NCBI GenBank assembly: GCA_937903035.1
Contig: CALCZP010000004.1
Location: 181,506-245,505, forward strand
Direction of reading: 5' to 3'
DNA length: 64,000 bases
DNA from: an uncultured bacterium
GTDB taxonomy: Bacteria; Patescibacteriota; Minisyncoccia; Phycocordibacterales; UBA9973
A program made the translations under genes and the position numbers. How positions within the stretch are numbered: position 1 is the first letter of the stretch; each line of letters opens with the position of its first letter. Shown here one piece after another: positions 4,985-47,094 of the stretch. The notes beneath the pieces are model-generated. The model worked only from the letters and a program-made list of their open reading frames with translations, was not told the origin of the DNA and ran no database searches.

Positions 4985-6283
4985 ATGTCATATAGTTTAA
5001 CCATGTTTCGCACGCGCCAACTCATTCTCCTACTCGGCGACACCTTTGCATTTGTTAGTGCATTTCTCATCATGGCACTTGTTCGCTTTGACGAAGGACT
5101 CCTTACTGAAAATGCACATCTCCAAGCAAAACTCTTTGCAACAGTTTTTGTAGTATGGCTGGTTGTCTTTTTTGTTTTTGATCTCTACACCTACACCCGT
5201 ATCAATCCTACCCCTCGCACCATCGGTCTTATCATTGGTGCCATGATTACTAATATTAGTCTTTCAGTACTGATATTCTATCTATTCCCAACCCAAGGCA
5301 TCACCCCAAAGACTAACCTTGCTATCGTTGCAGTTATTTCCCTCACACTTGTTGTTGTATGGCGTCGAAGCTTCTACCAGCTATTTTCCCAAACATTTAC
5401 TCGACGTATTGGTATCATTGGCGCAAGCGAAAGTGCCCATTCACTCAAAGACCTTATTTCAGACCATCCTCATATCGGCACTATCAGCTTTCACAGTCAG
5501 GAACTTGGTGAACATCAAGGCGCAGATCTCATCATTGCCGAGAACATGTCAGCAGATACCTTTCTTGCGCTTTCACGATCACTTGGTACCGAGCGTATGT
5601 CAGTCATCCAGGCCTACCAGACACTCTTTGGCAAAGTCCCCCTATCACTCATGACCGATGAGCATGCACTATCTATCATTACCAAAGAGCGCTCAGGACT
5701 TTTTATATTCACCCGTATCGTTGAAATACTTGTAGGATTACTTGTACTTATTATCACCTCTCCAGTTCTTCTTATTGCAATTATTGCAAGATTTATTGAA
5801 GATGGACGACCTATCTTTATTAGACAGACACGCGTTGGAAAAGATGGCAACATATTTAAACTCTACAAACTTCGCAGTATGAAAGCTCTCAATACTGATG
5901 GCTCAGCAGAAATTGGTGGTGTGCAATGGGCAGAAAAAAATGATCCTCGTATTACCCCACTCGGCCGTATCCTTCGCAAAACGCATATCGATGAAATCCC
6001 ACAGATGTACAACATCATCCGTGGCGACCTCGCACTCATCGGACCACGCCCTGAGCGTCCAGAAATCGTTGCAGATCTTGAGTCACAGATTCCCTACTAC
6101 TATTTGCGTCATACCGTCCGTCCTGGATTTACCGGCTGGGCACAAATCAAGTTTCGTTATGCGCGTACCGTACTCGACTCACAAGAGAAATTTGAATACG
6201 ACCTGTACTATCTGATGAACAGACACCCAGTCCTTGATGTTGGCATTTTCATCAAGACGATTCAGATTATTTTCACCCATTAA
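4985..6283 (+). CDS. Polyprenyl-phosphate hexose-1-phosphate transferase (bacterial sugar transferase, WbaP/WsaP-like initiating enzyme)
   Basis: 432 aa with N-terminal TM helices. The C-terminal Bac_transf domain reads PVLLIAIIARFIEDGRPIFIRQTRVGKDGNIFKLYKLRSM...DEIPQMYNIIRGDLALIGPRPERPE. Confidence 0.85.
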   Translation: MSYSLTMFRTRQLILLLGDTFAFVSAFLIMALVRFDEGLLTENAHLQAKLFATVFVVWLVVFFVFDLYTYTRINPTPRTIGLIIGAMITNISLSVLIFYLFPTQGITPKTNLAIVAVISLTLVVVWRRSFYQLFSQTFTRRIGIIGASESAHSLKDLISDHPHIGTISFHSQELGEHQGADLIIAENMSADTFLALSRSLGTERMSVIQAYQTLFGKVPLSLMTDEHALSIITKERSGLFIFTRIVEILVGLLVLIITSPVLLIAIIARFIEDGRPIFIRQTRVGKDGNIFKLYKLRSMKALNTDGSAEIGGVQWAEKNDPRITPLGRILRKTHIDEIPQMYNIIRGDLALIGPRPERPEIVADLESQIPYYYLRHTVRPGFTGWAQIKFRYARTVLDSQEKFEYDLYYLMNRHPVLDVGIFIKTIQIIFTH

Positions 6284-6321: not shown

Positions 6322-7146
6322 GTGAAAACACACAGTGTCACTATCCGACCAAAGAAGCTGTTTAGCTTTTCAGATCTCCAAGAAATTTGGGAATATCGAG
6401 AGCTTCTCTATTTCTTTGCATGGCGTGATATCAAGGTCAGATATAAACAAACGGCGATCGGCATCCTGTGGGCTGTCTTTCAACCCTTTGTCACTATGGT
6501 AGTGTTCAGTCTCTTTTTCGGATCACTCCTTCAAGTATCTTCTGATGGCGTTCCCTATCCAATCTTTGTCTATACCGGACTCCTCTTTTGGCAATTCTTT
6601 TCTACTGCACTTTCTGATACGAGTACTGTACTCATCACCAATCAACAAATCATTACCAAGGTATATTTCCCTCGACTTCTCCTTCCTCTTTCTTCAGTAC
6701 TCACAAAAGTGATTGACTTTGGGATTGCCGCAATCATCCTGGTTGGTATGATGCTCTATTATGGATTTACACCTCACCTTATATCACTTGTAGTACTTCC
6801 ACTCCTTTTGGTCATTACTTTTATGGCATCGAGTGGTCTCGGACTTATCCTTGCCGCAATCAATGTAAAGTACCGGGATGTTCGCTATGCATTGCCCTTT
6901 TTTATTCAAATACTGTTGTTTGTAACACCGGTGATATATCCGGCAAGTATTGCCGGCAAGTATTCATGGCTCCTTGCACTTAATCCAATGATGGGGGTTA
7001 TTCAGAGTGCTCGCGCATCGGTACTAGGTACAACCACCCTCAACTGGACACTTATTGGCATATCACTTGTTGCAACTTTTATCCTGCTCTTGCTAGGTAT
7101 CTACATTTTTAAAAAAACCGAGCGATATTTCGCGGATATTATGTAA
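6322..7146 (+). CDS. wzm: ABC-2 type polysaccharide/glycan export permease (Wzm/TagG-like)
   Basis: 274 aa with 6 TM segments. The N-terminal motif EYRELLYFFAWRDIKVRYKQTAIGILWAVFQP is typical of Wzm/KpsM/TagG. It uses a GTG start. Confidence 0.85.
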   Translation: MKTHSVTIRPKKLFSFSDLQEIWEYRELLYFFAWRDIKVRYKQTAIGILWAVFQPFVTMVVFSLFFGSLLQVSSDGVPYPIFVYTGLLFWQFFSTALSDTSTVLITNQQIITKVYFPRLLLPLSSVLTKVIDFGIAAIILVGMMLYYGFTPHLISLVVLPLLLVITFMASSGLGLILAAINVKYRDVRYALPFFIQILLFVTPVIYPASIAGKYSWLLALNPMMGVIQSARASVLGTTTLNWTLIGISLVATFILLLLGIYIFKKTERYFADIM

Positions 7147-7150
7147 TCTT

Positions 7151-8380
7151 ATGACACCTATCATTACTGCAAGCGGCATTGGCAAGAAATATACCTTGAA
7201 TAAGAACCAAGGAAGCTATGTTGCACTTCGTGACGTACTCACCTCTTTTGGAACAAGAGCGGCAGACATATTTCGCCGCACGAAAAAAAGTTCAACCAAA
7301 GAAATCTTTTGGGCGCTCCAAGATGTCGGATTTACTATAAACAAAGGCGAAGTGGTTGGCATCATCGGACGAAACGGTGCAGGCAAGTCAACACTTCTCA
7401 AAATACTTTCACAGATCACCCCACCAACAACCGGCGAGATTATGATTCGTGGACGAGTTGGGAGCCTTCTTGAAGTAGGTACCGGCTTCCATCCTGAACT
7501 CAGCGGACGTGAAAATATTTATCTCAATGGTGCAATCCTCGGTATGAGCCGCAAAGAGATCACTACAAAATTCAATGATATCGTCCAATTCGCAGACGTT
7601 GAAAAATTCCTTGATACACCAGTCAAATACTATTCAAGCGGCATGTACGTCAGACTTGCATTCTCAGTCGCCGCACACATGGAGCCTGATATTCTCATTA
7701 TTGATGAAGTCCTTGCGGTTGGTGATGCTGAATTCCAAAAGAAATGTATTGGTAAAATGGATGAGATTGCAAGAAAGGATGGTCGGACCGTTCTCTTTGT
7801 CAGCCACAATATGGCAGCAATCCAACAACTCTGCAAAAGCGCAATACTCCTAGAACAAGGACAGGTAAAAATGCAGGGACCTGTCAAAGAAGTCATTGAC
7901 GCATATATCGGCCTTGCGGAAAGTAGTGCCTATACAGACATATTATTTGAGCCTGATGCATCAAAAAAAATGGAGATTACCGCAATGAAAGTATCCAAAG
8001 ATGCTAATGAAGCGAGTATTGGCGTGATGAAAGATTTCATTATTGATATCGATATGACCCTTCGAGAAAAAGTAGAGGGTGCATTCATCAGTATTATTTT
8101 CTTTGACCAAGATGGGAGACGATGCGCTGACTTTATGGAAATAGATACTGACGAAAACGCTACCAAAGAACGCCTCGCCGGTGACTATACACTCTCAGTC
8201 ACCATTCCTGGCATTTTCAATGCAGGACTCTATACCGTCATGGTAGTGATCGAAAAAGGACAAGAAACACTCGACAAAAAAGATGGTCTCGTTATTCGTA
8301 TCACCGATACAACAGCGCATCCATACCCTATCCAAGGTAGAGCCCCTTTAATGCCACATGCGACGTGGAACTACCAATGA
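7151..8380 (+). CDS. wzt: ABC transporter ATP-binding protein with C-terminal glycan-binding extension (Wzt/TagH-like)
   Basis: Walker A is GRNGAGKST and the signature region is YSSGMYVRLAFS, as in Wzt/TagH. The nucleotide-binding domain is about 250 aa, followed by a 160-aa beta-rich extension consistent with a Wzt C-terminal carbohydrate-binding module. Confidence 0.85.
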   Translation: MTPIITASGIGKKYTLNKNQGSYVALRDVLTSFGTRAADIFRRTKKSSTKEIFWALQDVGFTINKGEVVGIIGRNGAGKSTLLKILSQITPPTTGEIMIRGRVGSLLEVGTGFHPELSGRENIYLNGAILGMSRKEITTKFNDIVQFADVEKFLDTPVKYYSSGMYVRLAFSVAAHMEPDILIIDEVLAVGDAEFQKKCIGKMDEIARKDGRTVLFVSHNMAAIQQLCKSAILLEQGQVKMQGPVKEVIDAYIGLAESSAYTDILFEPDASKKMEITAMKVSKDANEASIGVMKDFIIDIDMTLREKVEGAFISIIFFDQDGRRCADFMEIDTDENATKERLAGDYTLSVTIPGIFNAGLYTVMVVIEKGQETLDKKDGLVIRITDTTAHPYPIQGRAPLMPHATWNYQ

Positions 8381-11118
8381 ACATTCTCCTTTCGTACAGC
8401 AAAACACACTTTGATCCCAGCAAGCCTGCTGAACTCCATAAGCACTGGAACTCATCGGCAAGCATTCTCGCGCGCACACTCTACCACCTTCTCAAAGAGC
8501 TAGGCTCAGTAACCTATATCGACAAAAGTGAATACAAGGGTATTACCGGTCAGTCATTTGATCTCTTTGTTGGTATTACCGAACATTTTAGTGACATTCT
8601 TGATTCGTGCACCATCAAACAAAGCATTCTCTTTGCAGTAAACATGCACCCATATGAGCGCAATAAGCGTATTAAGTCATTTATGAGTCATGCACATATC
8701 CCACAAACAGCACTCGCTGGATATGAGCTTATCGAAAGCATCAATCCAACAAGTGCGATCAATCGTGCTAACTACATTCTCTGTGTTGGCAATACGGAGA
8801 CATATAACTCGTACATCACCCATGGTGTATCAAAGCAAAAAATCAAAATCATCAACTATGCCGCAGCTGACCTCATAGCACAATCCCCACTTGCGCGAAC
8901 AGCAGCAGCTCACTTTGTTCATGTCGGAAGCGAGATAGGAATACGGAAAGGATTTGATATTGTTGCCCAATTATTCAGCGACCCAAAAGTGGCCACGCAG
9001 GATATTCACCTTGATATCATTGGTACAACCACCTCCCCCTTTTACGAACAAAAACTTGCTGATCTGAAAACACTGCTCGGAGATAAGCTGACGTACCACG
9101 GATGGATTAATTCCAACGATGAACGTTACGCCAATATCATTGCACGAAGTGATTTTCTGGTATATCCCGCACTCGAGGAAGGTCAGGCAGGCTCAGTACT
9201 TGAGTCTCTCACGCTTGGAGTTATACCGATTGTGAGCAAAGCAACGGGTATTGATTTTTCACCACTTGGAACACTTGAAACAAGAATCTCGTCAGAAAAA
9301 AATATGTCAGTCTTGCAACATGCGATTTCATTACCCAAAGATGACATTGAAAAATTGAAACTAAAAACAAAAGAATACTACAACGAGCTCCATACTCCGT
9401 TCAAAGAACAACTCCGTCGCTCACTCAAAGATTCTATCAACAAAGAACTCTACCCGCGCGCAAGCATCGTACTTTCAATCTTTAACAAAGAAAAGACTAT
9501 TGTGTCTCTTCTAGAGCACCTCACCAAATCTTGTACTGCATACGGCAATACCGAAATCCAGATTATTTTTGATGGATGCAAGGATAAGAGCGAACACCTT
9601 GTGCGAGCATTTTTTGCAACCAGACCAGAGCATGATGTCACCTTTCATGTCACTGATAATATTTGGGAAGTAAAAAGTAACAATCTTGGTCTTCGATCAA
9701 GCACTGGTAGGTACGCAATCATTATCCAGGATGACAATTTTATCTACGATGAGAATTTTATTTTTGAAGTCGTTCACTTCTTTGAGAAAAATCCTACGGT
9801 CACAATTATTGGGGGGCTTGCGGGGGTAAACTTCTACCCACGAGGAACGACACTTTCACAGGGCCCAGGGCAACGGACATCAACCGCAGACGAAGCGTAC
9901 TGGCGACAAGATGCGGCAACAGACCCCGCGCTTAAAGAGCAGATTACAGAAGTTGATGCATGCATGCGTGGCCCCCTTTGTTTTCGAAAATCATTCCTTG
10001 AAACATATGGATATCTAGATGAAGTGTATGCCCCCCTTTATAATGATGATATGGATATTTGTTTTCGAGCAAAATCCCAGGGGTACAAAGTCTATACGAT
10101 ACTCCTTGATGTCGAAAACAGAAATGGTACGGTTGCAGGGTATGATGCAAAGAAAGCGGCTTTTTTCCAAAAGATGATCACTCGAAACTCGGATATTTTT
10201 TATCGAAGATGGAAACCGTCAACCACCAAAGACTATCTTCGCATCGTACGAATTCCTATTACAAAAACTTCCCGCAAACACTCTCTACATCCATACCTCT
10301 CTAGTATCAAAAAGCCATTCACAATCACCTCTCTCATTATGAAAAAAATCTACACCATGCTCAAAAAGAATATTACACAAGAAGGAATTGTAGGAGGTAT
10401 ACGCAAGACGTGCAGTGTGGCTATTCGCAAAACTGTCAGATATTGGCAGCATCTCCCCCACTACGTCATGCGTTTTGCGCGATTCGTTTATAGTAGTACT
10501 GAAGATAAAGAATACATCGAGCGAGAAAAACGTGAACGTCCATGGTACCAAATCAACGGTGATGAAACATTGCGAGTTGAGTATGACCTTGATCCTTCAT
10601 CTGTGGTTGTTGATGTGGGTGGATACAAAGGCGATTGGGCAAGTATTATCTCAAACAAATACAATCCAACCATTCATGTGTTTGAACCAGTCAGAGACTT
10701 TGCATTCAATATCAAACGTCGTTTCAAAAACCATGACAAGATCATTGTTCATGAAGCAGGACTTGGAGCAAAAGATGAAACTATTACCATTTATCTCGCT
10801 GAGGGCGGTACCTCTCTCATCAAGGAAGCGGCACAAGAAGTCGATGTCACCATCAAAGATGTCCATGCATTTATGACAGAACTAGGAACTCCTGTTGATC
10901 TGATGAAGATCAACATCGAGGGTGCAGAGTATGACTTGCTCAATCGCCTCATTGATACTGGTGATATCAAGAAGATCAACAACATTCAGGTACAATTTCA
11001 CAACTTTGTCCCCGATGCCAAAAAGCGTATGGAGGAACTTCGCACCAAGCTTTCCAAGACTCACCATGTTACTTATCAATATGAATTCATTTGGGAAAAT
11101 TGGGAGCGCACCATCTAA
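8365..11118 (+). CDS. Three-domain glycosyltransferase/methyltransferase: GT4-like (Glycos_transf_1), GT2, and a C-terminal FkbM-family SAM methyltransferase
   Basis: 917 aa. The N-terminal third has the GT1/4 signature EEGQAGSVLESLTLGVIPIVS. The middle has a GT2 fold (SIVLSIFNKEKTIV...IIIQDDNFI, a DxD). The C-terminus reads VVDVGGYKGDWA...MKINIEGAEYDLL, typical of FkbM methyltransferases. Confidence 0.75.
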   Translation: MELPMNILLSYSKTHFDPSKPAELHKHWNSSASILARTLYHLLKELGSVTYIDKSEYKGITGQSFDLFVGITEHFSDILDSCTIKQSILFAVNMHPYERNKRIKSFMSHAHIPQTALAGYELIESINPTSAINRANYILCVGNTETYNSYITHGVSKQKIKIINYAAADLIAQSPLARTAAAHFVHVGSEIGIRKGFDIVAQLFSDPKVATQDIHLDIIGTTTSPFYEQKLADLKTLLGDKLTYHGWINSNDERYANIIARSDFLVYPALEEGQAGSVLESLTLGVIPIVSKATGIDFSPLGTLETRISSEKNMSVLQHAISLPKDDIEKLKLKTKEYYNELHTPFKEQLRRSLKDSINKELYPRASIVLSIFNKEKTIVSLLEHLTKSCTAYGNTEIQIIFDGCKDKSEHLVRAFFATRPEHDVTFHVTDNIWEVKSNNLGLRSSTGRYAIIIQDDNFIYDENFIFEVVHFFEKNPTVTIIGGLAGVNFYPRGTTLSQGPGQRTSTADEAYWRQDAATDPALKEQITEVDACMRGPLCFRKSFLETYGYLDEVYAPLYNDDMDICFRAKSQGYKVYTILLDVENRNGTVAGYDAKKAAFFQKMITRNSDIFYRRWKPSTTKDYLRIVRIPITKTSRKHSLHPYLSSIKKPFTITSLIMKKIYTMLKKNITQEGIVGGIRKTCSVAIRKTVRYWQHLPHYVMRFARFVYSSTEDKEYIEREKRERPWYQINGDETLRVEYDLDPSSVVVDVGGYKGDWASIISNKYNPTIHVFEPVRDFAFNIKRRFKNHDKIIVHEAGLGAKDETITIYLAEGGTSLIKEAAQEVDVTIKDVHAFMTELGTPVDLMKINIEGAEYDLLNRLIDTGDIKKINNIQVQFHNFVPDAKKRMEELRTKLSKTHHVTYQYEFIWENWERTI

Positions 11119-11123
11119 TACTA

Positions 11124-11980
11124 TGAGACCCTCAATTGATGTCATTATCCCGCTCTATAACGGCGCAGCATTTATTGCTACAGCGATTGAGTCAGTTATT
11201 GCGCAAACCTACTCACCTACTCATATCATTATTATTAACGATGGATCGACCGATAAAGGACCCGAAATTGCAACTTCATACCAGACAAAGACATCAATCC
11301 CTCTTGTCATTATCAATCAGGAAAACAAAGGTCTCAGCGCCGCGCGCAATACAGGTATCAATACAGCAACCAGTGAGTACATCGCTTTTCTTGATGCAGA
11401 TGATGTATGGATCCCAGAGAAGCTTCAAAAACAAATAGGAGTATTCAATAAAAGCGATATCTCAAACCTCGGACTCGTGTATTGCTTGTATAACATTATC
11501 AATGCACAAGGACAGATTGACCCGCACGGCTTTGTCGTCCCACTCGACACATCAATCCGAGGTGCAGTGTTTAGCAAACTCCTCAAGGGCAACAAAATCC
11601 TCTCAAGTGGTAGTGGCGTATTGATTAAACGAACCGTATTTGAAACAGTCGGACAATTCAATGAAACACTTCGTTTTGGTGAAGACTGGGACATGTGGCT
11701 CCGTATCGCAGAACAATACGGAGTCGACTATAGCGATACAGTACTCGTTCATATCAGAAGGCACGGACAAAACATGACCACATCAAAGAAACGAGTGTTT
11801 CAGGGCGAGATTGCGTTTTATCGTGTATGGCTCCGTTATATGATCAACCACAACCGACGAGTACCGTTGAGATGGAAGCTGAAAATCATCTACAAAATAC
11901 TCACACTGTTTCCTCCTGTATCACTTATCAAACAGGCATTACCAGTGCTTTTTGTACCACGCAATACCTTTGGTAAGTAG
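11124..11980 (+). CDS. Family 2 glycosyltransferase
   Basis: Start trimmed to the ATG at 11124 (MRPSIDVIIPLYNGAAFIATAIESV...IINDGSTDKG...AFLDADDVW). GT2 fold with a DxD motif. Confidence 0.85.
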
Positions 11981-12784
11981 GAGTCGGAGTGGTGTACGCA
12001 ATACAAACCCATACATAAAGATACGAGCGTACGATCTCATAACTGCAGACCAGTATCCTGGGTATTGTGCTTTATATTTTTTAATAAGAGGAATGTTTTG
12101 AGAGAACTGAAGCTTTTTATTCCTTCCACTCAAGCTCCCGGCACGAAGAGTAAAATGAACAGAATATATCGAAAGATTTGCAAGCTCACCTACCATTCCA
12201 AGCTTGAGCCACAGATCGTAGTCCTCTATATGAAGCGAAGCCGGATCTTCATCATATCCTCCGACAGAGAGTACTGCATCTTTTCGAAAGACAACACTCG
12301 AATGAACAAAGCAATTCTTGCCAAGGAGCACTGATCGTATATGTGCATCTGTCTGAGGAACCAAATACCGAAACAACTCTTTTCCTACCTCATCAATCAT
12401 CACCACACCCGTGCCAACAAGAACAGTGTTTGGATGAAGTACCATATATGACACTTGTTTGGCGAGCTTCTCTGTATCAATCCATCGATCATCATCGTCG
12501 ATCCGGGCAATGAGATCACCCTGCGCAATACGAAGTCCTTTGTTCAACGTCTTTTGAATACCAAGATTTTTCTCGTTTTCAATAAAGTGGATTTTTGCAT
12601 CATGTTTCATAATTTCTGCCACGATCTCCTTAGTAGTGTCAGATGATCCATCACTGATAATGATCAATTCCCAGTTGTGGTACGTTTGCACCTGGACGCT
12701 TTCAATTGCACCTTTGATAAATGCAGCACCATTCCACGTAGGGAGAATAATAGAAACAAGCGGTGTACTCATATACGTATCCAT
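11939..12784 (-). CDS. Family 2 glycosyltransferase
   Basis: VSIILPTWNGAAFIKGAIESVQVQTYHNWELIIISDGSSD...RIDDDDRW. GT2 fold with a DxD motif. It overlaps the convergent GT2 gene by about 40 bp at the 3' ends. Confidence 0.85.
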   Translation of the reverse strand: MDTYMSTPLVSIILPTWNGAAFIKGAIESVQVQTYHNWELIIISDGSSDTTKEIVAEIMKHDAKIHFIENEKNLGIQKTLNKGLRIAQGDLIARIDDDDRWIDTEKLAKQVSYMVLHPNTVLVGTGVVMIDEVGKELFRYLVPQTDAHIRSVLLGKNCFVHSSVVFRKDAVLSVGGYDEDPASLHIEDYDLWLKLGMVGELANLSIYSVHFTLRAGSLSGRNKKLQFSQNIPLIKKYKAQYPGYWSAVMRSYARIFMYGFVLRTPLRLLLTKGIAWYKKHW

Positions 12785-13644
12785 TCTGGTGGAATAAGAC
12801 CACTCGTATCAATCGATGTATCGTTAAACCATTTTTGTGGTGCGACGACTATCTTATTAGTTGCTGTACCGAGCCATGCCGCCCACCATGAAAACGTACT
12901 GTTTGGAATAATAAAGTGCGTGCATGATTGCATCAGCGCAAAGTGCCCACTCTCGCGCTCACCTCGATAGATATCATCAACAAACGTTGCAGGGTGAAGA
13001 AATGCCAAGTTATTCTTGCACCACTCTATATCATCAGAAAACACATAGATATGATCAATAGTCGTCTTTGCTTCAAGAACATCAAGCGCCTGGTAGTAGT
13101 AGTCCTTGAACACGACTTCGTGATGGGTATTCCCGACATAATCCCCTCGTCTAACATGAAGACATACTGATGAATGATGCGACTGTACTTCTGTTTTAAC
13201 ACGCTGTATATGTGCCTGCAGTGGTTGTTGCAGGGTCAAGTCTTTTCGTATAGTGTCCGCAATAGACTCAAAGTATTTGTAGCTCTGCCAATAACCATCC
13301 AGATAGGTATCAGAACCGAGCGTAAGTATATCGGGATTGAAAGCGAATCCCTTTTCTTTTCCCCCAAACAGCATTCGTCGCAATTTGTTTAGATACAGCC
13401 CAAACTTACCCGATCCCCATGAGCGATACTTCCACCCTAGTTTAGATTGTGGAACTATTTCAGCAGCTATATTAAACAGATCGAGATCATACTCGCGAAA
13501 CGTAAATCCTTTGCGAGGAGTTCGATCAAGCAGATCATGTGTATCAAGTCCGAGTGTTGTATTATTTTTAACAGCAAGAGCGCGTCCAGCCGCATACTGA
13601 AACATCTGGTTACCCATTCCCCCTGAAAGTCGTGTGATGATCAT
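12769..13644 (-). CDS. Alpha-1,2-fucosyltransferase (GT11 family)
   Basis: Start at the internal ATG (MIITRLSGGMGNQMFQYAAGRALA). The GG(L/M)GNQMFQYA motif is diagnostic of GT11 FutC/WbgL-type enzymes. Confidence 0.8.
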   Translation of the reverse strand: MIITRLSGGMGNQMFQYAAGRALAVKNNTTLGLDTHDLLDRTPRKGFTFREYDLDLFNIAAEIVPQSKLGWKYRSWGSGKFGLYLNKLRRMLFGGKEKGFAFNPDILTLGSDTYLDGYWQSYKYFESIADTIRKDLTLQQPLQAHIQRVKTEVQSHHSSVCLHVRRGDYVGNTHHEVVFKDYYYQALDVLEAKTTIDHIYVFSDDIEWCKNNLAFLHPATFVDDIYRGERESGHFALMQSCTHFIIPNSTFSWWAAWLGTATNKIVVAPQKWFNDTSIDTSGLIPPEWIRI

Positions 13645-13645
13645 A

Positions 13646-15640
13646 TTATTTTTGGGACGTCCATCGTTCTTGCATCGCCAGAACATATGCACGATCTCGC
13701 GGAGACGCAGTTTGCATTATTTTTTCAGTGGTTCGATACCCTGGCTGATATTGTGGAGCAAGTGCAATACCAGCCCTGAGATACTGCCATGCATGACGAT
13801 AATCCTTTTCAAACAGATATGTCTGCGCGATATCGAAATATAGATTTGCATTCCTACTGTTTATCAAGCGTGCATCCTGAAGTCGTCCACGAGCATCCGC
13901 AAGCACTAGAGGATCTGGATTCCCTGCAAGTACGACACTGAGTGTCTTGAGTTGACCACTCACCCACCGAGCTCGAAATGTGTCTACATCAGTTGCAATA
14001 TCTTCATCAAGATTAGCAATAAGATTATTAACAATAATCAAGTGAGATTTTTTTTGATCATCATTCATTACTCCTAGCTTGCTTCGTATACTATCAAAAA
14101 CTTTTCCTGCAAAAAGAGCTGAGTCACTTGCGTATCCAAGAGATGAAATATGCTGAGGGTTTTTTTGATTAGATAGAATCAACATATCTCTTTTGGAGTA
14201 TTTATTCCATGCAACTGATTCTTGCCATGGCTGTACAAATGCAATCACCACAAAAATCAAACCTGCAAGAATTCCGCTAAAAGAAAGTATCTTATCTGGG
14301 AATGGGAATACTAAAGAATACTTATGAGAAACTATTCTCTGATACATACCGATAGTAGCGCCGACAATAACAAAAAAAATTAACAGTGTTCCAGGACTTT
14401 CAAATATAAAAAGATTTTGAATCACATATCCCACAAATGCACCAAGCATGGCAATAGCAACTATTCTATGTTCACGATCTCTTGTTGAAACTTGGTAGAG
14501 ATAAACAATTACCATACCAAGAAGACTTATATAAGCGAGCAGGCCTACAATACCCCCATTTACCAAATATTCCCAAAACATATTATGAGGATGATCAGTC
14601 CAAGGTTCATATGCATTAGTAGTTGAGAAAAATACTGGATCAAAATGTTTTTGGAAAACGTATGAATAATTATTAGCTCCCCATCCAAGGAAAGGTTTTT
14701 CAAGATACCCCTCTCTTGCTATATCCCAAAATATAAAACGGTTGGTATTTTTTTCTTGTACGTACGCCTGATGCAGTCGAGTGTTCGGATCAAAAAACTG
14801 CTTTCCGATCAGTAATCCGATTATGCCACCTACGAACAGTAATCCCATACCTCCATATTGCAACTTTTTTTTCTTTGCCGTGACTAAAAAAAATACACAC
14901 ATAGTACTCACTGCTGTCACCAGCCCCAAAAATGCTCCATCAGCAGATCCAGCGACGAGACTCGGATTTTGCATAATATCTTTAAATCCAATACTTCCAT
15001 TCAAAAGATCGTTGTTAAAAAAAATAGGTGAAAAAACAATCGGTACCACCCCGAGAGTAGTCAACACTTTATACATACTATCCTTTGATGAAAGGATAAG
15101 ATACAGACCAAAACAAACATGTACTAATAAATATGCCCCCACATATGAAGTGTTCCCAAATGTTGATCCACCATTTGAACTAATAAACATACTGTTTAGA
15201 TAAGTTCCACTAGCAACTACAATACTCGTGCAAAAAGATACAAGAATCATGCCACGCAAAAATGACACATCTTCTCTAATACAACGAGCGATAGCAAGCG
15301 CAACTATTGTAAGTGCAATGATAAGGTTGACTCCCACACCATCAACAAGACTTCCAAAAAACGAAAGTTTAGGGTCAAATCCGGCAAATGCACTCAATAC
15401 AAGTGTTACGAGATACACCAAAAGCATCAAATGAAGTGCTGTGACTTGTACTGTCTTTCGACTATTTACATACCGGTCATAGAACAACAGCATCCCGATC
15501 AGTAATCCTACCCCTGTAGAAATTAATGCTTTTGGTGTTGTATAAGGAAAAAAATGGCTGCTTCCTACATATAAAGGAACAATAACGAGCATACCGTATA
15601 TCATCCATTTTACAGTAAGCAGTGGCCAAGTAATTTTCAT
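13646..15640 (-). CDS. O-antigen ligase/polymerase family membrane protein (Wzy_C domain; WaaL/WsaB/PglL-like) with a C-terminal soluble TPR-like tail
   Basis: About 10-12 TM helices. The conserved loop reads WTDHPHNMFWEYLVNGGIVGLLAY. The C-terminal roughly 190 aa is soluble. The ORF-track start at 15667 is TTG, so I chose the ATG at 15640. Confidence 0.65.
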   Translation of the reverse strand: MKITWPLLTVKWMIYGMLVIVPLYVGSSHFFPYTTPKALISTGVGLLIGMLLFYDRYVNSRKTVQVTALHLMLLVYLVTLVLSAFAGFDPKLSFFGSLVDGVGVNLIIALTIVALAIARCIREDVSFLRGMILVSFCTSIVVASGTYLNSMFISSNGGSTFGNTSYVGAYLLVHVCFGLYLILSSKDSMYKVLTTLGVVPIVFSPIFFNNDLLNGSIGFKDIMQNPSLVAGSADGAFLGLVTAVSTMCVFFLVTAKKKKLQYGGMGLLFVGGIIGLLIGKQFFDPNTRLHQAYVQEKNTNRFIFWDIAREGYLEKPFLGWGANNYSYVFQKHFDPVFFSTTNAYEPWTDHPHNMFWEYLVNGGIVGLLAYISLLGMVIVYLYQVSTRDREHRIVAIAMLGAFVGYVIQNLFIFESPGTLLIFFVIVGATIGMYQRIVSHKYSLVFPFPDKILSFSGILAGLIFVVIAFVQPWQESVAWNKYSKRDMLILSNQKNPQHISSLGYASDSALFAGKVFDSIRSKLGVMNDDQKKSHLIIVNNLIANLDEDIATDVDTFRARWVSGQLKTLSVVLAGNPDPLVLADARGRLQDARLINSRNANLYFDIAQTYLFEKDYRHAWQYLRAGIALAPQYQPGYRTTEKIMQTASPRDRAYVLAMQERWTSQK

Positions 15641-15720: not shown

Positions 15721-17613
15721 TTAGTCGAGCTTAGCGTCAGCTGTTTCGTAGTTCTGCGCCGGAGCGAGAGTGTATGAAGCAGGAGTACCTGACTGGTCAG
15801 TGTCATAACGAACTGCACCGAGTTGTACACGGTAGAATCCAGCAGTAGCTGAACCCTTTGTGAGTTCGAGAGTAACATTGAAGGTCTTAGTTTCACCATC
15901 AGCAACCTTGTAGTAGCCACCAACAGTGTCAGCACTTGAAGTAAGTGATGAAGCTGAAGCAGTTACAGAAGTATCGGTAGCACCAGCACTGGTTTCTACA
16001 GAGTAGATGAGACCAGCTGTTGAACCAGATGAAGCTACAGTCTTAGGAATGTAGTAGTCATTACCGAATGCAGTTACTTTGTAAGAAACTGTGTAAGTCT
16101 GCTTACTGAAGGTACCAGAAGTGTTTGAAGTTGCAGAAACACTTGAAGTGAATCCTGAAACCATAACGCCCTCTGAGTAGAATGTCTGAGTTTCACCAGT
16201 TACAGAACCAGTGAGATCACCAACAGAAAGGTTGTCACCATTCTCATCCTCAAAGCCAACAGCATTGCGCTCGTTTGAGCCAAATGTTACTGAAGCTGAG
16301 TCACCTTCGGTGAAGTTAACACCGTCGATTTCTTTGATCTTTGCTACAACCTTGAATGTTTCAACGTCGCCTTCACTGATAGTGAAGTCATCATCGAAGT
16401 CGAAGGTTACAGTACCAGAAGTACTTGAAGGAGCATCCTGACTGTCAATCTCTTCTGAGCCGTTCATAAGAGCGAGCTCATCAAAGATCTGAGTACCGTT
16501 AGCACCAGTAGTGTTTACCTGAACTGGGAGAGAATCAAAAGTAATATCTGATCCTTCTGCCTTGATCTTGAACTCAAGCATAGTAATACCTGAAGTTGCA
16601 CTAGTGTCAGATACTTCTACGTTCTGAGCTTCTGGGTTGTTTGAACCTTCAGTTACCTTAACCTTAACATCACCTGATGCTGAAAGGTCAGTGAAAGTGA
16701 AGTCTTCATCTGGAGCAGAAGTATCAGTCAATACAGCACCACCAGCGTCAGTGAAGCGGATTGTTGAAACTTCAACGTTCCAAGTAGCAGTAAGGTCAGT
16801 ACTATCGATGTTATCAATAGCATCAACTGCAACGTAAAGGTTTGCCTTTTCGTCAGCCTTGATTACAGCACCAGAGAGAGAAACACTCTTTGAGTAGACA
16901 TCTCCATCCTTGTTGAAATCATCAACACTTACTGAACCAACTTTCTTTGAACCGAGCCATACTGACACAGTGTCAACGTAACGGTTCAAGCGAGCTGAAG
17001 AAGAGTTGTTAGCAGTGTTTTCAAATGAAAGCTTCACGTTAGTGAGTGCTACATCTGAACCATTGTCAGCCTCAACCTTTGCACCGAGAACGATGTGGGT
17101 AGAGTCACCTTCTTTAACTTCACTGTCGCCTACACCATTTGAGGTAGAAGTAACAGTAATGTCACCTGCACCACCGGTAAGAGGGCCACTAGTTGAACCA
17201 CCAGAACAAAGAGCACCAGTAGTTGAACTGTACATAGCACCAGCTACGCAGCCAGCAGGAAGATTAGATCCACCTGTTGAACCAGAAGCCTGAAGTGCTA
17301 CAGCCTTAGCAGCTGACATTGGTCCGAAGACGCCGTCAGCAGTGAGACCGTTAGCAACCTGGAAGCGCATAACCGCTGCCTTTGTTGCAGAACCAAATGT
17401 TGATGTTTCCATTCCTGGAGCACCTGCACCTGATGTTGATACCTGAGTACCAGGCCACATGTTAAGGAACTTTTGGAGATCCATAACAGCAGCACCTTTA
17501 GAACCATATTTGAGAGTCGTTGACCAAGTGTAAGTTGCTGCACTTGCAGTTGATGCAAGAGTAACTACACCGAGAACCAACGCTGCTACAAAAAATTTAA
17601 ATTTTGAAGTCAT
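15721..17613 (-). CDS. Secreted surface protein: signal peptide, peptidoglycan-binding (PG_binding_1-like) domain, long Ser/Thr/Gly-rich beta-rich region; putative S-layer/cell-wall glycoprotein
   Basis: 630 aa. MTSKFKFFVAALVLGVVTLASTASA is a signal peptide. GSKGAAVMDLQKFLN...ATKAAVMRFQVANGLTADGVFGPMSAAKA matches the PG-binding repeat. The rest is S/T/G/V-rich. The gene is isolated by strong terminators and has a long upstream untranslated region. Confidence 0.65.
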   Translation of the reverse strand: MTSKFKFFVAALVLGVVTLASTASAATYTWSTTLKYGSKGAAVMDLQKFLNMWPGTQVSTSGAGAPGMETSTFGSATKAAVMRFQVANGLTADGVFGPMSAAKAVALQASGSTGGSNLPAGCVAGAMYSSTTGALCSGGSTSGPLTGGAGDITVTSTSNGVGDSEVKEGDSTHIVLGAKVEADNGSDVALTNVKLSFENTANNSSSARLNRYVDTVSVWLGSKKVGSVSVDDFNKDGDVYSKSVSLSGAVIKADEKANLYVAVDAIDNIDSTDLTATWNVEVSTIRFTDAGGAVLTDTSAPDEDFTFTDLSASGDVKVKVTEGSNNPEAQNVEVSDTSATSGITMLEFKIKAEGSDITFDSLPVQVNTTGANGTQIFDELALMNGSEEIDSQDAPSSTSGTVTFDFDDDFTISEGDVETFKVVAKIKEIDGVNFTEGDSASVTFGSNERNAVGFEDENGDNLSVGDLTGSVTGETQTFYSEGVMVSGFTSSVSATSNTSGTFSKQTYTVSYKVTAFGNDYYIPKTVASSGSTAGLIYSVETSAGATDTSVTASASSLTSSADTVGGYYKVADGETKTFNVTLELTKGSATAGFYRVQLGAVRYDTDQSGTPASYTLAPAQNYETADAKLD

Positions 17614-35448: not shown

Positions 35449-38400
35449 TTAGCTGAGTGTAATAGCTTCTCCACCAATCGCAACACTAGTGGCACCCACG
35501 GTCTTTTTCAGTTCCTCACCAAAACTATCAACGACTGATTGATACTGAAATGGAAGTGTAAGAGTGATGATATCAGATGGTGCAAGACCTTTGTCTTTGC
35601 GCATGTCTTGGACCGTACGTACAAGCTCACGGTACTCACCTTCGAGTTTAAGTTGAAGTGTGATCGTTGTATCAAGCTTTGTTTCTTCACCTGCGATCAC
35701 TGACTTCACATTGAGTTCCTGCATCACAATCGCTGCGTATTGGTCGCTGAGATTCCAGTTTTTGACATACAGTGCCTGGAGTGGCTGACGGACTGCGATA
35801 CCCTCTTTTTTACGAAGTGCATTTCCTTGTGTACAAACCTCGCGCACGGTAGCCATATCTTTCAATAGCTCATCACTCACTGGCATTACTGCTGGCCAAG
35901 TACTCAAGTGCACACTCTCCTCGTTTGATAAGGACTTCAATTTCTGCCAGATATCTTCTGCTGCAAATGGTGCAAATGGTGCCATGAGCTGTGCGACTGT
36001 TTTGAGTACGCGGTAGAGTGTCGCTTTTGCGGCAACATCACCATCCTTGATGCGATCGCGACTCCGACGCACATACCAGGTCGAAAGGTCATCAATAAAG
36101 TCACGAAGTGCTCGTACCGGCTCAAGTAGCTTGTAGGTATCGAGACTTTCAGTCATCAGACTCGTGAGTTGATCGAGCCGAGTTGTAATCCATGCGTCGA
36201 GCACATTATCACCACTTGGATCTACCTCTTCTACGTTTGGATCTCGATAGAGGTCGTAGAATGAGAGCACATTGTAGAGCAATCCGAATACCTGACGTTG
36301 AAGCTCGACGACTGTTTTCTCATCATAGTTCTTGCTATCACCTGGCTGGTTGACTGAGTACATCCAGAGACGGAGTGTATCGACACCGTACTTCTCCATT
36401 TGCTCCCATGGGTTCACGATGTTGCCAATAGACTTACTCATTTTCTTACCTTGTGCATCAAGAAGATGTCCAAGACAAATGACGTTTTTGTATGCCTTGC
36501 CACGCCCAGTGAGCAAGCCAATCGCATGGAGTGTGTAGAACCATCCACGAGTCTGATCGATAGCTTCGGAGATAAAGTCAGCTGGATATGCAATCTCTCC
36601 ATCAAACGGATAATGATCCTGTGCAAACGGCATCGCTCCTGAGTCAAACCACACATCCATCACCTCTTTGGTGCGGCGATATTCCTTGCCATCTTTGACA
36701 AGCACTACATCATCGATGAACGGACGGTGGAGATCAAGCTCAAACTGCGCATTATGTGGAAGTGGTACAAAGTGAAGCGGACGGACTTCGGCATTACTGA
36801 AGTTCACATAGTCGCGCGTTTCTTCAAAGAGACGATCAAAGCTAATCCCTCGCGCTACAAGCTCAAGTGCGCGCGTTGATGCACCATGGGCAACGATCAA
36901 AATATTCTTGCCCTGGTAGCGAGATTCAATATCGTAGAGCGCCTCACCTGCACGCTTGATCACATCGGCATATGATTCACCATCAACAGTCTTGAACCCA
37001 TAGCGATCAGCTGCCTTGTTGCGCATTTCAAAGTATGACTCGATCGGCTTTCCTTCAAATGCACTACCCACATTCCACTCCCCGAGACGAGCATCGGTCA
37101 CGATAGCTTCGGCAGCTAATCCAAGCTTCTCAGCGACAATACGCGCTGTCTCTTGGGTACGAGCAAATGGTGACGCGATGATGAGATCGATCTGTTTGTC
37201 AGCGAGCGCAGTCGCACTTTGAATTGCCTGCTCTTTGCCACGAGTGGTGAGTGGATTTGTGGTTGCAGTATTCACATTCCAGTTCCCTGCAACGTTAAAC
37301 TCTGTCTCGCCATGCCGCATGACAAAGTACTTGTTGTTATTATGCTTGGCATATTTCTTGAGCATATCGATCGAGTCGACAACCATGCGGTCAGTATCTT
37401 CTGAAATCCAAATCGGAAGCGGTGTGCCCCAGTAGCGCTCGCGTGAGATCGCCCAGTCCTTGATACCGTCGAGCCATTCGCCAAAGCGCCCTTCTTTGAT
37501 ATGTGACGGCTCCCAGTTGATGCTTTCATTCTCAGCAACAAGTGTGTCACGAAGTTTCGACATAGCGATATACCATGAGTCACGCGCGTAGTAGATGAGC
37601 GCAGTTTTACAGCGCCAGCAGTGCGGGTATGAGTGTTCGTACTTTTCTTTCTTGAAGAGGAGTCCGCGATGTGCGAGGTCTTTGATGATGTCGACTGCGA
37701 CTTCTTCGTCTTTGACAAATCTTCCTTCAAGAAAATCAGTGCCTGCAATAAACTTTCCTTCGACATTCACCGTGTGGAATTTCGGAAGACCAACCTTGGT
37801 ACCAAGCTCAAAGTCCTCTGCACCATACATTGGTGCAATATGGACGATACCACTACCATCAGTCGTTGTGACAAAGTCAGCAGTATAGACCTTATACGCA
37901 TTGGTAAGTTTTTCTTTTTCTGTACCAGTGATCTGTGCGGCAAGGTATGGATAGAGTGGCTCATACTGCATATCCGCCAAATCTTCTCCAAAATCTCTTC
38001 GCACTTCTTCATAACCATCACCAACCAAATCTTTTTTATCTTCAGCAACAATTAAAATTTCATTCTCTTTTTTGAGCCAAAGATATGTAATATTAGCACC
38101 TACCGCCAGTGCAACATTCCCTGGCAATGTCCATGGTGTTGTTGTCCAAGCAACAATATAAACATTCTCAAAATCCTTAACTTTTGCCTTAAACTTTGCG
38201 TATACTGTCAGATCTTTATCATCCTGATATCCTTGCGCAAGCTCATGGGTCGCAAGTGTTGTTCCGCATCGCGCACACCATGGTGAGACTCGATAGTCCT
38301 TGTAGAGGAGACCCTGATCGTTGACCTTACCGACAATATTCCAGAGACTCTCCATATAGCGAGGATTGAACGTGTAGTACGCCTTGTCCTTGTCGACCCA

Positions 38401-38823
38401 GTAGCCAATACGATCGGTGAAATCTTCCCAGTCTTTAATATAGGTAAAGACGCTGTCCTTACATTCTTTGTTAAATTTTTCGATACCGTAGGCTTCGATG
38501 TCTTTTTTTGAAGCAAGTTCCAATTTCTTTTCGATCTGAAGCTCGACCGGAAGTCCGTGAGTATCCCATCCGGCACGGCGCGGTACATGGAAGCCCTGCA
38601 TGGTCTTGTAGCGAGGGATCACGTCCTTGAATGCACGTGCGAGCAAGTGATGAAGCGCTGGCTTTGCATTTGCTGTTGGCGGTCCTTCAAAAAAGACAAA
38701 CTCACCCTTGGTCGCAGGCTTCTCAAGTGTTTTTTTGAATATGTCATTATCGCGCCAAAAATCGAGCATTCGCTCTTCACGAAGTGCCGACTCGCTTTTC
38801 TGTTGGTTTGTTGATTCATTCAT
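35449..38823 (-). CDS. ileS: Isoleucyl-tRNA synthetase carrying an in-frame histidine-phosphatase (PGAM-like) domain insertion
   Basis: 1124 aa. IleS catalytic core, CP1 editing domain (AWTTTPWTLPGN), KMSKS (KMSKSIGN) and anticodon-binding region are all present. Between ISRERYWGTPLP and DVWFDSG there is an extra ~200 aa with RHGETEFN...LIVAHGASTRAL, the two catalytic-His motifs of the histidine phosphatase superfamily. The HIGH-position reads ALHH. Confidence 0.85.
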   Translation of the reverse strand: MNESTNQQKSESALREERMLDFWRDNDIFKKTLEKPATKGEFVFFEGPPTANAKPALHHLLARAFKDVIPRYKTMQGFHVPRRAGWDTHGLPVELQIEKKLELASKKDIEAYGIEKFNKECKDSVFTYIKDWEDFTDRIGYWVDKDKAYYTFNPRYMESLWNIVGKVNDQGLLYKDYRVSPWCARCGTTLATHELAQGYQDDKDLTVYAKFKAKVKDFENVYIVAWTTTPWTLPGNVALAVGANITYLWLKKENEILIVAEDKKDLVGDGYEEVRRDFGEDLADMQYEPLYPYLAAQITGTEKEKLTNAYKVYTADFVTTTDGSGIVHIAPMYGAEDFELGTKVGLPKFHTVNVEGKFIAGTDFLEGRFVKDEEVAVDIIKDLAHRGLLFKKEKYEHSYPHCWRCKTALIYYARDSWYIAMSKLRDTLVAENESINWEPSHIKEGRFGEWLDGIKDWAISRERYWGTPLPIWISEDTDRMVVDSIDMLKKYAKHNNNKYFVMRHGETEFNVAGNWNVNTATTNPLTTRGKEQAIQSATALADKQIDLIIASPFARTQETARIVAEKLGLAAEAIVTDARLGEWNVGSAFEGKPIESYFEMRNKAADRYGFKTVDGESYADVIKRAGEALYDIESRYQGKNILIVAHGASTRALELVARGISFDRLFEETRDYVNFSNAEVRPLHFVPLPHNAQFELDLHRPFIDDVVLVKDGKEYRRTKEVMDVWFDSGAMPFAQDHYPFDGEIAYPADFISEAIDQTRGWFYTLHAIGLLTGRGKAYKNVICLGHLLDAQGKKMSKSIGNIVNPWEQMEKYGVDTLRLWMYSVNQPGDSKNYDEKTVVELQRQVFGLLYNVLSFYDLYRDPNVEEVDPSGDNVLDAWITTRLDQLTSLMTESLDTYKLLEPVRALRDFIDDLSTWYVRRSRDRIKDGDVAAKATLYRVLKTVAQLMAPFAPFAAEDIWQKLKSLSNEESVHLSTWPAVMPVSDELLKDMATVREVCTQGNALRKKEGIAVRQPLQALYVKNWNLSDQYAAIVMQELNVKSVIAGEETKLDTTITLQLKLEGEYRELVRTVQDMRKDKGLAPSDIITLTLPFQYQSVVDSFGEELKKTVGATSVAIGGEAITLS

Positions 38824-46512: not shown

Positions 46513-47094
46513 ATGAACCAAGAAAAATCAAATAAGCAGTACGATACAATCATCGCTGACTGCAAAAAAGAATTCATTAAAAAAAACAAAAAATACGGAA
46601 ACAGTCTCGATAGCTATGACGCAATGGGTGTCCTTTCAAAAGTTTTTATCAAGCTGTATCGCATTGCCTCAATCCAGGAAGCTGGAGAATATAAAGTTGA
46701 AGGCGAACCTATTGAGAAAGAACTTCCCGGCATTATCAACTATTGTTTGTTTGGCATCACTGTCGCAAACCAAATAGCAAGCGGAATAAGAGTATGTTAT
46801 AGCAGCGATGCACTCTTTCAAGAGTATGACCAAGCAGCAGCATCTACGAGAAATTTATTTCAAAAGAAAAATCATGATTATGGTGAAGCATGGCGACAGC
46901 TCTCAATAAGCTATATGACACAGGAATGCCTGGTAAAGTATAATCGCATGCTTACGATGTACGCCGGATTAAAATTCAAGCCTGAGAATCGACAAGAACT
47001 TCAAAAAGAATTCATCGAAGTGTTCTCTGACATTTGCAACTACTGTATTTTTTGTTGTATTCGTATTTCAGAAGGCGCAAACGCTATGGTGTAG
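46513..47094 (+). CDS. DUF1599-like protein with two tandem repeats, each carrying a K-x-x-(D/K)YG..W motif
   Basis: 193 aa. KQYDTIIADCKKEFIKKNKKYGNSLDSYDAMG...IINY and again NLFQKKNHDYGEAWRQLSISYMT. This resembles the DUF1599 family, which is often found next to thymidylate synthase and folA genes. The region is AT-rich. Confidence 0.5.
   Translation: MNQEKSNKQYDTIIADCKKEFIKKNKKYGNSLDSYDAMGVLSKVFIKLYRIASIQEAGEYKVEGEPIEKELPGIINYCLFGITVANQIASGIRVCYSSDALFQEYDQAAASTRNLFQKKNHDYGEAWRQLSISYMTQECLVKYNRMLTMYAGLKFKPENRQELQKEFIEVFSDICNYCIFCCIRISEGANAMV

Follow-up and report, generated by a model that had tools for sequence, protein, structure and literature searches.

A 64,000-nucleotide stretch from an uncultured bacterium of the patescibacterial lineage Minisyncoccia (contig CALCZP010000004.1, positions 181,506 to 245,505; hereafter the window) carries a glycan gene cluster in which the ATP-binding cassette (ABC) transporter Wzm/Wzt is encoded directly ahead of a 913-residue enzyme that joins two glycosyltransferase (GT) domains, of types GT4 and GT2, to an FkbM-family methyltransferase domain. 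Though uncharacterised, the system is a recognisable variant of the “cap, then export” systems already described. The best explanation, to which we give a little more credence than doubt on sequence and analogy, is that the cluster specifies an assembly line for a capped glycan, composed of a polymerase, a terminator and a Wzt that would read the cap. The features that bear on this explanation are listed below, with protein lengths and positions in amino acids (aa).

7151..8380, plus strand: Wzt, whole gene, 409 aa
7151..7915, plus strand: nucleotide-binding domain (NBD) of Wzt, aa 1-255 (ABC_tran, 79.8 bits)
7916..8380, plus strand: predicted C-terminal carbohydrate-binding domain (CBD) of Wzt, aa 256-409, a beta-sandwich (alignment, AlphaFold2, Foldseek)
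8377..9441, plus strand: GT4-type domain (GT-B fold), aa 1-355 of the 913-aa enzyme (Glycos_transf_1, Glyco_trans_1_4)
9442..10251, plus strand: GT2-type domain (GT-A fold), aa 356-625 of the same enzyme (Glycos_transf_2, Glyco_tranf_2_3)
10252..10581, plus strand: basic helical linker, aa 626-735 (four short helices in the AlphaFold2 model)
10582..11118, plus strand: FkbM-family S-adenosylmethionine (SAM)-dependent methyltransferase domain, aa 736-913, the proposed terminator (Methyltransf_21, TIGR01444)

An earlier sequence-only reading had proposed chain termination for this pair of genes. Both of its open reading frames exist, and the order GT4-GT2-methyltransferase in one polypeptide was recovered by Pfam and by the AlphaFold2 (AF2) model. 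The three domains that it gave to the large enzyme are supported by Pfam and TIGR01444, and the length of 917 aa has to be revised: the start codon is ATG 8377, not GTG 8365, which gives 913 aa and full (100%) identity to database protein P0001. This ATG and the stop codon of wzt overlap as ATGA, and wzm, wzt and the fused-enzyme gene are closely packed; both gene order and translational coupling match those of characterised capped-glycan systems. The locus has exactly one methyltransferase domain, fused to the polymerase and directly downstream of the CBD-bearing Wzt.

The 913-aa enzyme is ordered as GT4, GT2, basic helical linker and FkbM methyltransferase, and all of its parts are under purifying selection. 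Pfam matches, in the numbering of the 917-aa form, comprise Glycos_transf_1 at 184-296 (37.5 bits) and Glycos_transf_2 at 366-579 (41.2 bits), both above cut-off, and Methyltransf_21 at 750-900 (45.7 bits, cut-off 22.7). The AF2 model of the 913-aa form has a mean predicted local distance difference test score (pLDDT) of 88.5 and resolves into a GT-B domain (1-355, pLDDT above 90), a GT-A domain (360-625), a linker of four helices (633-727, block-mean pLDDT ~48-80) and an alpha/beta domain (743-908, pLDDT ~85-95). Foldseek confirms both GT folds, with matches that include the GT-B-type enzymes BshA, PglA and TarM for the GT4 domain, and K4CP and the Leptospira GT2 structure 6p61 for the GT2 domain. 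The EX7E motif of the GT4 domain (E268-E276) and the invariant D399/D403, D452-D453 and D557-D560 of the GT2 domain are intact and conserved among 41 homologues, and the protein is a putative polymerase with two GT modules whose catalytic motifs are preserved. Comparison with a 76%-identical orthologue in locus L030 gave dN/dS values (ratios of nonsynonymous to synonymous substitution rates) of 0.161 for GT4, 0.087 for GT2 and 0.076 for FkbM; these and all other dN/dS values given here are rough, because dS is near saturation.

The linker helices occupy aa 633-669, 671-689, 694-704 and 708-727 of the model. Residues 683-705 show the highest hydrophobic moment of the whole protein (0.73, more than three standard deviations above the mean) together with a net positive charge. 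The strongly basic and amphipathic character of the linker suggests an interfacial membrane anchor. A coiled-coil ruler within the ~110-aa linker was considered and rejected, since the model shows short helices that Pro and Gly residues interrupt; even the longest nominal helix (37 aa, at low pLDDT) contains two such breaks, Pro639 and Pro647.

The C-terminal domain is assigned by sequence to the FkbM family of SAM-dependent methyltransferases, as the sequence-only reading had it, with its start moved from about 10560 to about 10582. It scores 59.9 bits against TIGR01444 fkbM_fam (cut-off 37.7), as well as matching Methyltransf_21. Motif I, VVDVGGYKGDWA, lies at aa 744-755 and includes DVGGYKG; it is followed by HVFEP at 767-771 and INIEGAEYDLL at 845-855, and the acidic residue after beta2 is present. 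The AF2 model shows an alternating beta/alpha topology at a pLDDT of ~85-95. With motif I and all family-invariant residues intact, and with the lowest dN/dS of the three catalytic domains, the idea of a pseudo-domain was rejected on the grounds of purifying selection and intact motifs. A single-sequence search of the PDB with this domain returned chance-level matches only, and an FkbM profile found only weak matches there, to the motif-I region of phosphoethanolamine N-methyltransferase (E 0.16). Alignment of the FkbM family with its Methyltransf_11-type neighbours in hhalign detected no relation, the alignments being too shallow.

Wzt carries a Walker A motif, GRNGAGKST, at aa 73-81, and its NBD is ~45% identical to the NBD structures of Aquifex aeolicus Wzt (6m96/6an5) in Foldseek alignments. 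The beta-rich extension that had been read at the C-terminus of this ABC ATPase is borne out by several methods, although the Pfam check proposed for it succeeded only for the methyltransferase: Wzt_C (PF14524) matches aa 271-375 at 18.6 bits, below its gathering cut-off of 30.4. Most Wzt homologues at 50-58% identity carry PF14524. In a phmmer search of the PDB, aa 50-372 align through the CBD of full-length A. aeolicus Wzt (8dku/7k2t, E 7e-67). The AF2 monomer model, built with 79 homologues, places eight beta strands within aa 274-408 at a block-mean pLDDT of ~75-95 over aa 261-390; the final strand (aa 405-408) follows a low-confidence loop and is compatible with strand exchange. Foldseek ranks full-length Wzt (8dku/7k2t) first over ~400 columns (33% identity, E 1e-36), followed by NBD-only Wzt structures (250 columns, E 1e-27). 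The C-terminal ~150 aa are accordingly best described, from alignment and modelling, as a Wzt_C-like beta-sandwich homologous in both sequence and fold to the A. aeolicus CBD, so the outcome that was to refute the sequence-only reading on this point, an extension lacking such a fold, did not occur. The domain is taken as real despite the sub-threshold Pfam score because phmmer, AF2 and Foldseek agree independently. Used alone as a homologue query, it retrieved nothing, which is a limit of the word index.

The two parts of Wzt evolve at different rates. Against the orthologue in L030, the NBD has a rough dN/dS of 0.045 and the binding domain one of 0.144; the latter evolves ~3 times faster, yet under purifying selection. 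Across the Wzt homologues, NBD identity is steady at 64-70%, whereas among the binding domains a small subtype stands at 35-70% and all others at ~22%. Discrete, fast-evolving binding-domain subtypes on a steady NBD are the pattern expected of a cap-specific reader. In the characterised systems with a CBD-bearing Wzt, the binding domain always reads the terminal cap (PMC11231755; PMC9445017); that of A. aeolicus binds a 3-O-methyl-mannose / 3-O-methyl-rhamnose cap (PMC9445017).

The remaining genes of the cluster would supply further steps of a glycan pathway.

4985..6283, plus strand: WbaP/WsaP-like polyprenyl-phosphate hexose-1-phosphate transferase, the initiator, 432 aa, first gene of the operon (Bac_transf, 191 bits)
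6322..7146, plus strand: Wzm, ABC-2 permease, 274 aa (ABC2_membrane, 60 bits)
11066..11980, plus strand: single-domain GT2, 304 aa, overlapping the 3' end of the large gene (Glycos_transf_2, 118.8 bits)
11939..12772, minus strand: second single-domain GT2, 277 aa (Pfam scan and gene call)
12769..13644, minus strand: glycosyltransferase of family GT11 (the alpha-1,2-fucosyltransferase family), 291 aa (Glyco_transf_11, 119 bits)
13646..15592, minus strand: Wzy_C-domain membrane protein, 648 aa (Wzy_C, 49.6 bits)
15721-17613, next after the Wzy_C gene in coordinate order: protein with a peptidoglycan-binding domain

The plus-strand operon thus runs from the WbaP-type gene through Wzm, Wzt and the three-domain enzyme to a GT2, and the GT2, GT11 and Wzy_C genes on the minus strand are convergent with it. 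The initiator scores 272.8 bits against TIGR03025, below the cut-off of 295.55. The Wzy_C protein is a putative glycan ligase or O-oligosaccharyltransferase of the WsaB/PglL/WaaL superfamily by sequence; a PDB search found no relative of it. The cluster, on a 405-kb contig of a metagenome assembly, lies between ribosomal protein L10/L12 genes and the genes ftsK and recA. The nearest named homologues come from Saccharibacteria, Gottesmanbacteria, Paceibacterota and “Patescibacteria group” genomes, which by themselves make a patescibacterial origin likely.

The closest precedent in layout is the slg cluster of Geobacillus stearothermophilus NRS 2004/3a (WsaP, Wzm, Wzt, WsaE, WsaB), in which wzm, wzt and wsaE overlap, initiation is by a WbaP-type enzyme, a Wzy_C transferase is present, and WsaE, a methyltransferase-GT-GT protein, makes the chain and is proposed to cap it as well (PMC2943079). 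The window shares with it the combination of two GTs and an O-methyltransferase in one polypeptide encoded directly after wzm-wzt, WbaP-type initiation despite an ABC transporter, the Wzy_C transferase, the overlap of transporter and enzyme genes, a host without lipopolysaccharide (LPS) and the lack of a known ruler. In contrast to WsaE, where the methyltransferase is N-terminal, that of the window is C-terminal, of the FkbM family and combined with GT4 and GT2; the two enzymes are compared here by their described domains. The window cluster also has no rml genes.

The multi-domain GT polymerase and the C-terminal binding module of Wzt are shared with Escherichia coli O8/O9a (Klebsiella O5/O3), where a methyl or phospho-methyl cap is placed at the non-reducing end and the Wzt module admits only capped chains. 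There the terminator, WbdD, forms a protein of its own that has a long coiled-coil ruler, a C-terminal amphipathic helix and a non-FkbM methyltransferase, and the polymerase WbdA has GT4 domains only, whereas in the window the terminator is fused to the polymerase without a ruler. Such a fusion, together with a Wzt bearing a carbohydrate-binding module, is known from WbbB of Klebsiella O12 / Raoultella terrigena and from ORF6 of Klebsiella O7, although in both the terminator is N-terminal and a coiled coil precedes the GT modules, unlike the arrangement in the window; the cap is Kdo in the case of WbbB and a methyl-phosphate from a methyltransferase-kinase pair in Klebsiella O7 (PMC11231755). 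The Pseudomonas syringae TET operon, wzm-wzt-wbdD(methyltransferase)-wbdA, likewise unites transport, elongation and termination genes, and some isolates have its GT and methyltransferase genes as a fusion (PMC7820976); its polymerase has two GT4 domains and it serves a proteobacterial LPS. A. aeolicus WzmWzt (7k2t, 8dku; PMC9445017), the best solved match to the window Wzt across both domains, belongs to a Gram-negative LPS O-antigen system, and its pocket residues T346, A348 and W362 are not conserved in the window. The window system therefore differs from the prototypes in the absence of a ruler, the domain order, the methyltransferase family and the host envelope.

What the analysis shows directly are the domain identities and folds, the preserved catalytic motifs, the layout of the operon and the existence of both fused and split relatives. 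From these and by analogy with the systems above, we infer that the methyl group sits at the chain end, that it stops the chain and that the binding domain recognises it, as well as which sugars are involved. The WbaP-type enzyme would prime undecaprenyl phosphate, and the single-domain GT2 and GT11 enzymes would build the adaptor, the chain end or both. In the 913-aa enzyme, GT4 and GT2 would take turns in extending the chain at its non-reducing end. Tethered to the polymerase through the basic amphipathic linker, which probably lies on the membrane, the FkbM domain would O-methylate the terminal sugar, possibly a deoxyhexose added by GT11, and extension would stop. The beta-sandwich of Wzt would then bind the methylated end, so that only finished chains enter the Wzm/Wzt channel, and outside the membrane the Wzy_C protein may move the glycan to an acceptor, perhaps a protein or a wall component. 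Since terminator and polymerase are fused 1:1 and a coiled coil is absent, chain length would be set by kinetic competition and not by a ruler.

The relatives of the GT4-GT2 core place the fusion in context. The core is a large family at 42-55% identity, present in lineages of the candidate phyla radiation, Solirubrobacterales, Motilibacter, Paenibacillus, Akkermansia and Desulfovibrionaceae. Of the 120 best-matching clusters at 90% identity, at least 23 are fused to a methyltransferase (10 to FkbM, 13 to a Methyltransf_11-type domain); the others are mostly unfused, at ~610-725 aa, and unfused members of the family (~670-690 aa) stop shortly past the GT2 domain. The FkbM fusions fall into two unrelated subtypes, which brings the fused methyltransferase types, all unrelated, to three. 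The description of GT4-GT2-methyltransferase as an unusual architecture in the sequence-only reading is therefore an overstatement; the window FkbM subtype is also fused to many other glycosyltransferases, and published precedents exist in WsaE, WbbB, Klebsiella O7 ORF6 and the fused P. syringae WbdA-WbdD. The split form that had been suggested as a check is present too: stand-alone homologues of the window FkbM domain (40-47% identity) adjoin an unfused core in L009, L010, L013, L014 and L026. The core is thus found alone, with the window FkbM subtype, with the second FkbM subtype and with a Methyltransf_11-type domain, in the manner of Rosetta-stone evidence, and the GT4-GT2-FkbM fusion joins genes that are normally neighbours.

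We also note two GT4-GT2-FkbM fusions with a decayed methyltransferase domain (L025:12044-12514 and L029:1437-1937), both of which lack ~50 aa and no longer have motif I; intact stand-alone methyltransferases are encoded next door.

In a survey of 26 genome loci containing the core, the order wzm-wzt-core recurs ~10 times, and in related loci wzm is mostly upstream of wzt. Wzt is at least 409 aa long in 11 of the 14 core loci where it was seen, usually with a weak or significant Wzt_C match. Whether presence of a methyltransferase follows presence of a binding domain is a test that is uninformative across the core loci, because almost every locus has a methyltransferase.

The window FkbM subtype was traced separately: 664 relatives were found at E <=1e-30 among 1.84 billion representative proteins. 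In the best 150, about 70% are proteins of 190-330 aa that stand alone; fusions to GT2, GT1-like or GT10 domains, or to another methyltransferase, make up the remainder. The subtype was also sampled without bias in metagenomes: of 33 loci of at least 8 kb each, eight have Wzm/Wzt in the flank. Of these eight, six have a Wzt of 412-442 aa and four have the methyltransferase gene immediately after wzt. A binding domain like that of the window occurs together with the same FkbM subtype in L030, L032 and L037, among loci with readable context, and in L037 the subtype sits on a different, GT2-only scaffold. Two more loci with such a binding domain are cut by contig ends.

Several observations weigh against chain termination by the FkbM domain. 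The coiled-coil ruler that marks the WbdD and WbbB prototypes is absent from the 913-aa enzyme as modelled. Only 8 of the 33 metagenome loci have Wzm/Wzt within the flank, so the FkbM family is not a dedicated terminator and membership alone makes no terminator; the capping explanation consequently rests on the position and partners of the FkbM domain in this locus. In three actinobacterial loci, on Solirubrobacterales-type contigs (L010, L014 and L026), the Wzt found with the window FkbM subtype is an ABC domain only, 255-261 aa long. Each combines wzm, short wzt, a GT4-GT2 core and a stand-alone FkbM gene; in L014 and L026 this gene comes immediately after wzt, and in L010 it is ~2.7 kb beyond the core. 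These loci form an apparent exception to the pairing of a cap enzyme with a CBD-bearing transporter. L033 and L040 have a window-like binding domain but other FkbM subtypes; with these discordant and too few independent readable loci, the tie between binding-domain subtype and methyltransferase subtype is suggestive only. In many related loci there are two or three methyltransferase genes, from different families, where one cap would need fewer, and L030, the locus of the closest orthologue, itself has an additional Methyltransf_11 gene. In L011, where Wzt is long, no methyltransferase was found among the genes examined. Finally, sequence alignment matches the methyl-pocket residues of the A. 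aeolicus CBD just partly: I299/L300 correspond to I/I in the window Wzt, T346 to M and A348 to V, and W362 has no aligned Trp, so the cap chemistry cannot be transferred from A. aeolicus. The chain-termination proposal thus keeps its support from gene order, coupling and domains, and is weakened by the missing ruler, the multiple methyltransferases, the loci with a short Wzt and the low share of metagenome loci with a transporter.

Much of this evidence would suit a rival explanation, in which the FkbM domain decorates internal or side-chain sugars of every repeat or of some repeats without stopping growth, the Wzt domain binds another feature of the polymer, and chain length and export are controlled in some other manner. 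Two to three methyltransferases per locus are common in the relatives, the same FkbM subtype occurs beside a Wzt without a binding domain, no ruler is present, and in the 25 metagenome loci without nearby Wzm/Wzt the FkbM gene abuts GT11/GT10 genes in ordinary-looking GT operons, one of them with Wzy_C. We nonetheless consider decoration unlikely here: the domain is the sole methyltransferase domain of the locus, is fused to the polymerase and comes just after a CBD-bearing Wzt, every characterised Wzt of that kind reads a terminal cap (PMC11231755; PMC9445017), and the closest solved one reads a methyl cap (PMC9445017).

A second rival assigns termination to the GT11 enzyme, which would place on the chain a unique end sugar, for instance fucose or some other deoxyhexose, beyond which the polymerase cannot proceed; methylation of that sugar by the FkbM domain would only complete the epitope read by Wzt. 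GT11 is present in the window, in 16 of the 26 core loci and in most of the Patescibacteria wzm-wzt loci examined. It also lies within 3 kb of the FkbM subtype, usually abutting it, in 15 of the 33 metagenome loci, where GT10 genes are frequent as well. Protein P0283 is a GT10-FkbM-GT2 fusion, and gmd/fcl-like genes precede wzm in L018, L032 and L040. GT11 could equally add a side branch or belong to the adaptor; moreover, GDP-fucose synthesis genes were not found among the window genes scanned, and it is the polymerase, not GT11, to which the methyltransferase is fused. Termination by GT11 is a distinctly unlikely alternative. For the capping explanation, the same proximity of FkbM to GT11/GT10 genes, both of fucosyltransferase families, indicates that the cap may be a methylated deoxyhexose, and suggests from gene content that the methylated residue is one added by the GT11 enzyme, in which case the cap may be built in two steps. 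The O antigen of Rhizobium etli CE3 ends in a multiply O-methylated fucose. A further rival, which sees functionless evolutionary remnants of this genome in the methyltransferase domain, in the C-terminal domain of Wzt or in both, can point to the degenerate FkbM copies in L025 and L029 with intact methyltransferases nearby, but is scarcely credible in view of the intact motif I and family-invariant residues in the window, the rough dN/dS values of 0.076 (methyltransferase) and 0.144 (binding domain), and the high AF2 confidence for both domains.

In locus L051, an 843-aa B12-binding/radical-SAM-GT2 fusion is encoded two genes downstream of the methyltransferase, directly after GT11.

Other parts of the 64 kb hold several features unconnected with the glycan cluster. 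The 5' part of a bacterial 23S ribosomal RNA gene, cut by the window edge, occupies 1-749 on the minus strand, and transfer RNA genes were found nowhere in the 64 kb. A class I aminoacyl-tRNA synthetase of 1124 aa (35449-38823, minus strand; tRNA-synt_1 and Anticodon_1) has a His_Phos_1 histidine-phosphatase domain (117.9 bits) inserted at aa 500-674, which is unusual for an Ile/Val-type enzyme. A 482-aa protein (47200-48648, plus strand) gives only a weak Thy1 (ThyX) match, at aa 39-257; beside it is a DUF1599 “nucleotide modification associated” protein (46513-47094, plus strand), a short DHFR-like open reading frame lies nearby, and together these genes may constitute a nucleotide-modification module. 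A very large open reading frame of 1783 aa is present at 58560-63911 on the minus strand.

Among other Patescibacteria, Wzy_C (+TPR) genes also flank wzm-wzt. On the contigs of L033-L037, and partly in L040, a block of SecA, MurB and Wzy_C+TPR faces Wzm and CBD-bearing Wzt on the opposite strand; in L040 just a SecA fragment and a Wzy_C-like open reading frame are seen. In the L033-L037 block, Wzm/Wzt is followed by variable GT and methyltransferase genes (GT11, DUF268/Methyltransf_11, TylF/Methyltransf_24, FkbM). The combination looks like a widespread and variable capped-glycan locus.

Taken jointly, these loci permit a broader and tentative proposal, which we regard as rather unlikely: Patescibacteria, which lack LPS, would widely use a ruler-free capped-glycan ABC pathway leading to Wzy_C(+TPR), with swappable methyltransferases, a co-diversifying Wzt and a GT11-linked methylated deoxyhexose cap. 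In this proposal a conserved GT4-GT2 polymerase would bear either of two FkbM subtypes or Methyltransf_11, fused or neighbouring, a terminator joined 1:1 to the polymerase would set chain length, and the Wzt binding domain would diversify in step with the methyltransferase modules. A literature search found no paper linking Patescibacteria or Saccharibacteria with Wzm/Wzt. The gain from the capping explanation would be one of breadth and detail and not of principle, since the cap-export logic is well precedented and the architecture is common in its family.

If the capping explanation is true, the “cap, check, export” logic of O antigens would reach the candidate phyla radiation, where envelope glycans have hardly been studied. 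The fusion of terminator to polymerase would provide a compact, ruler-free test case for the setting of chain length, and the fused and split forms, the three methyltransferase types and the fast-evolving binding domains would form a series for following the co-evolution of caps and their readers. The surface glycan may also bear on the attachment of these episymbionts to hosts and on their recognition by phages. If the joint proposal is also true, these ultra-small episymbionts would possess a modular, cap-swapping route to surface-glycan diversity.

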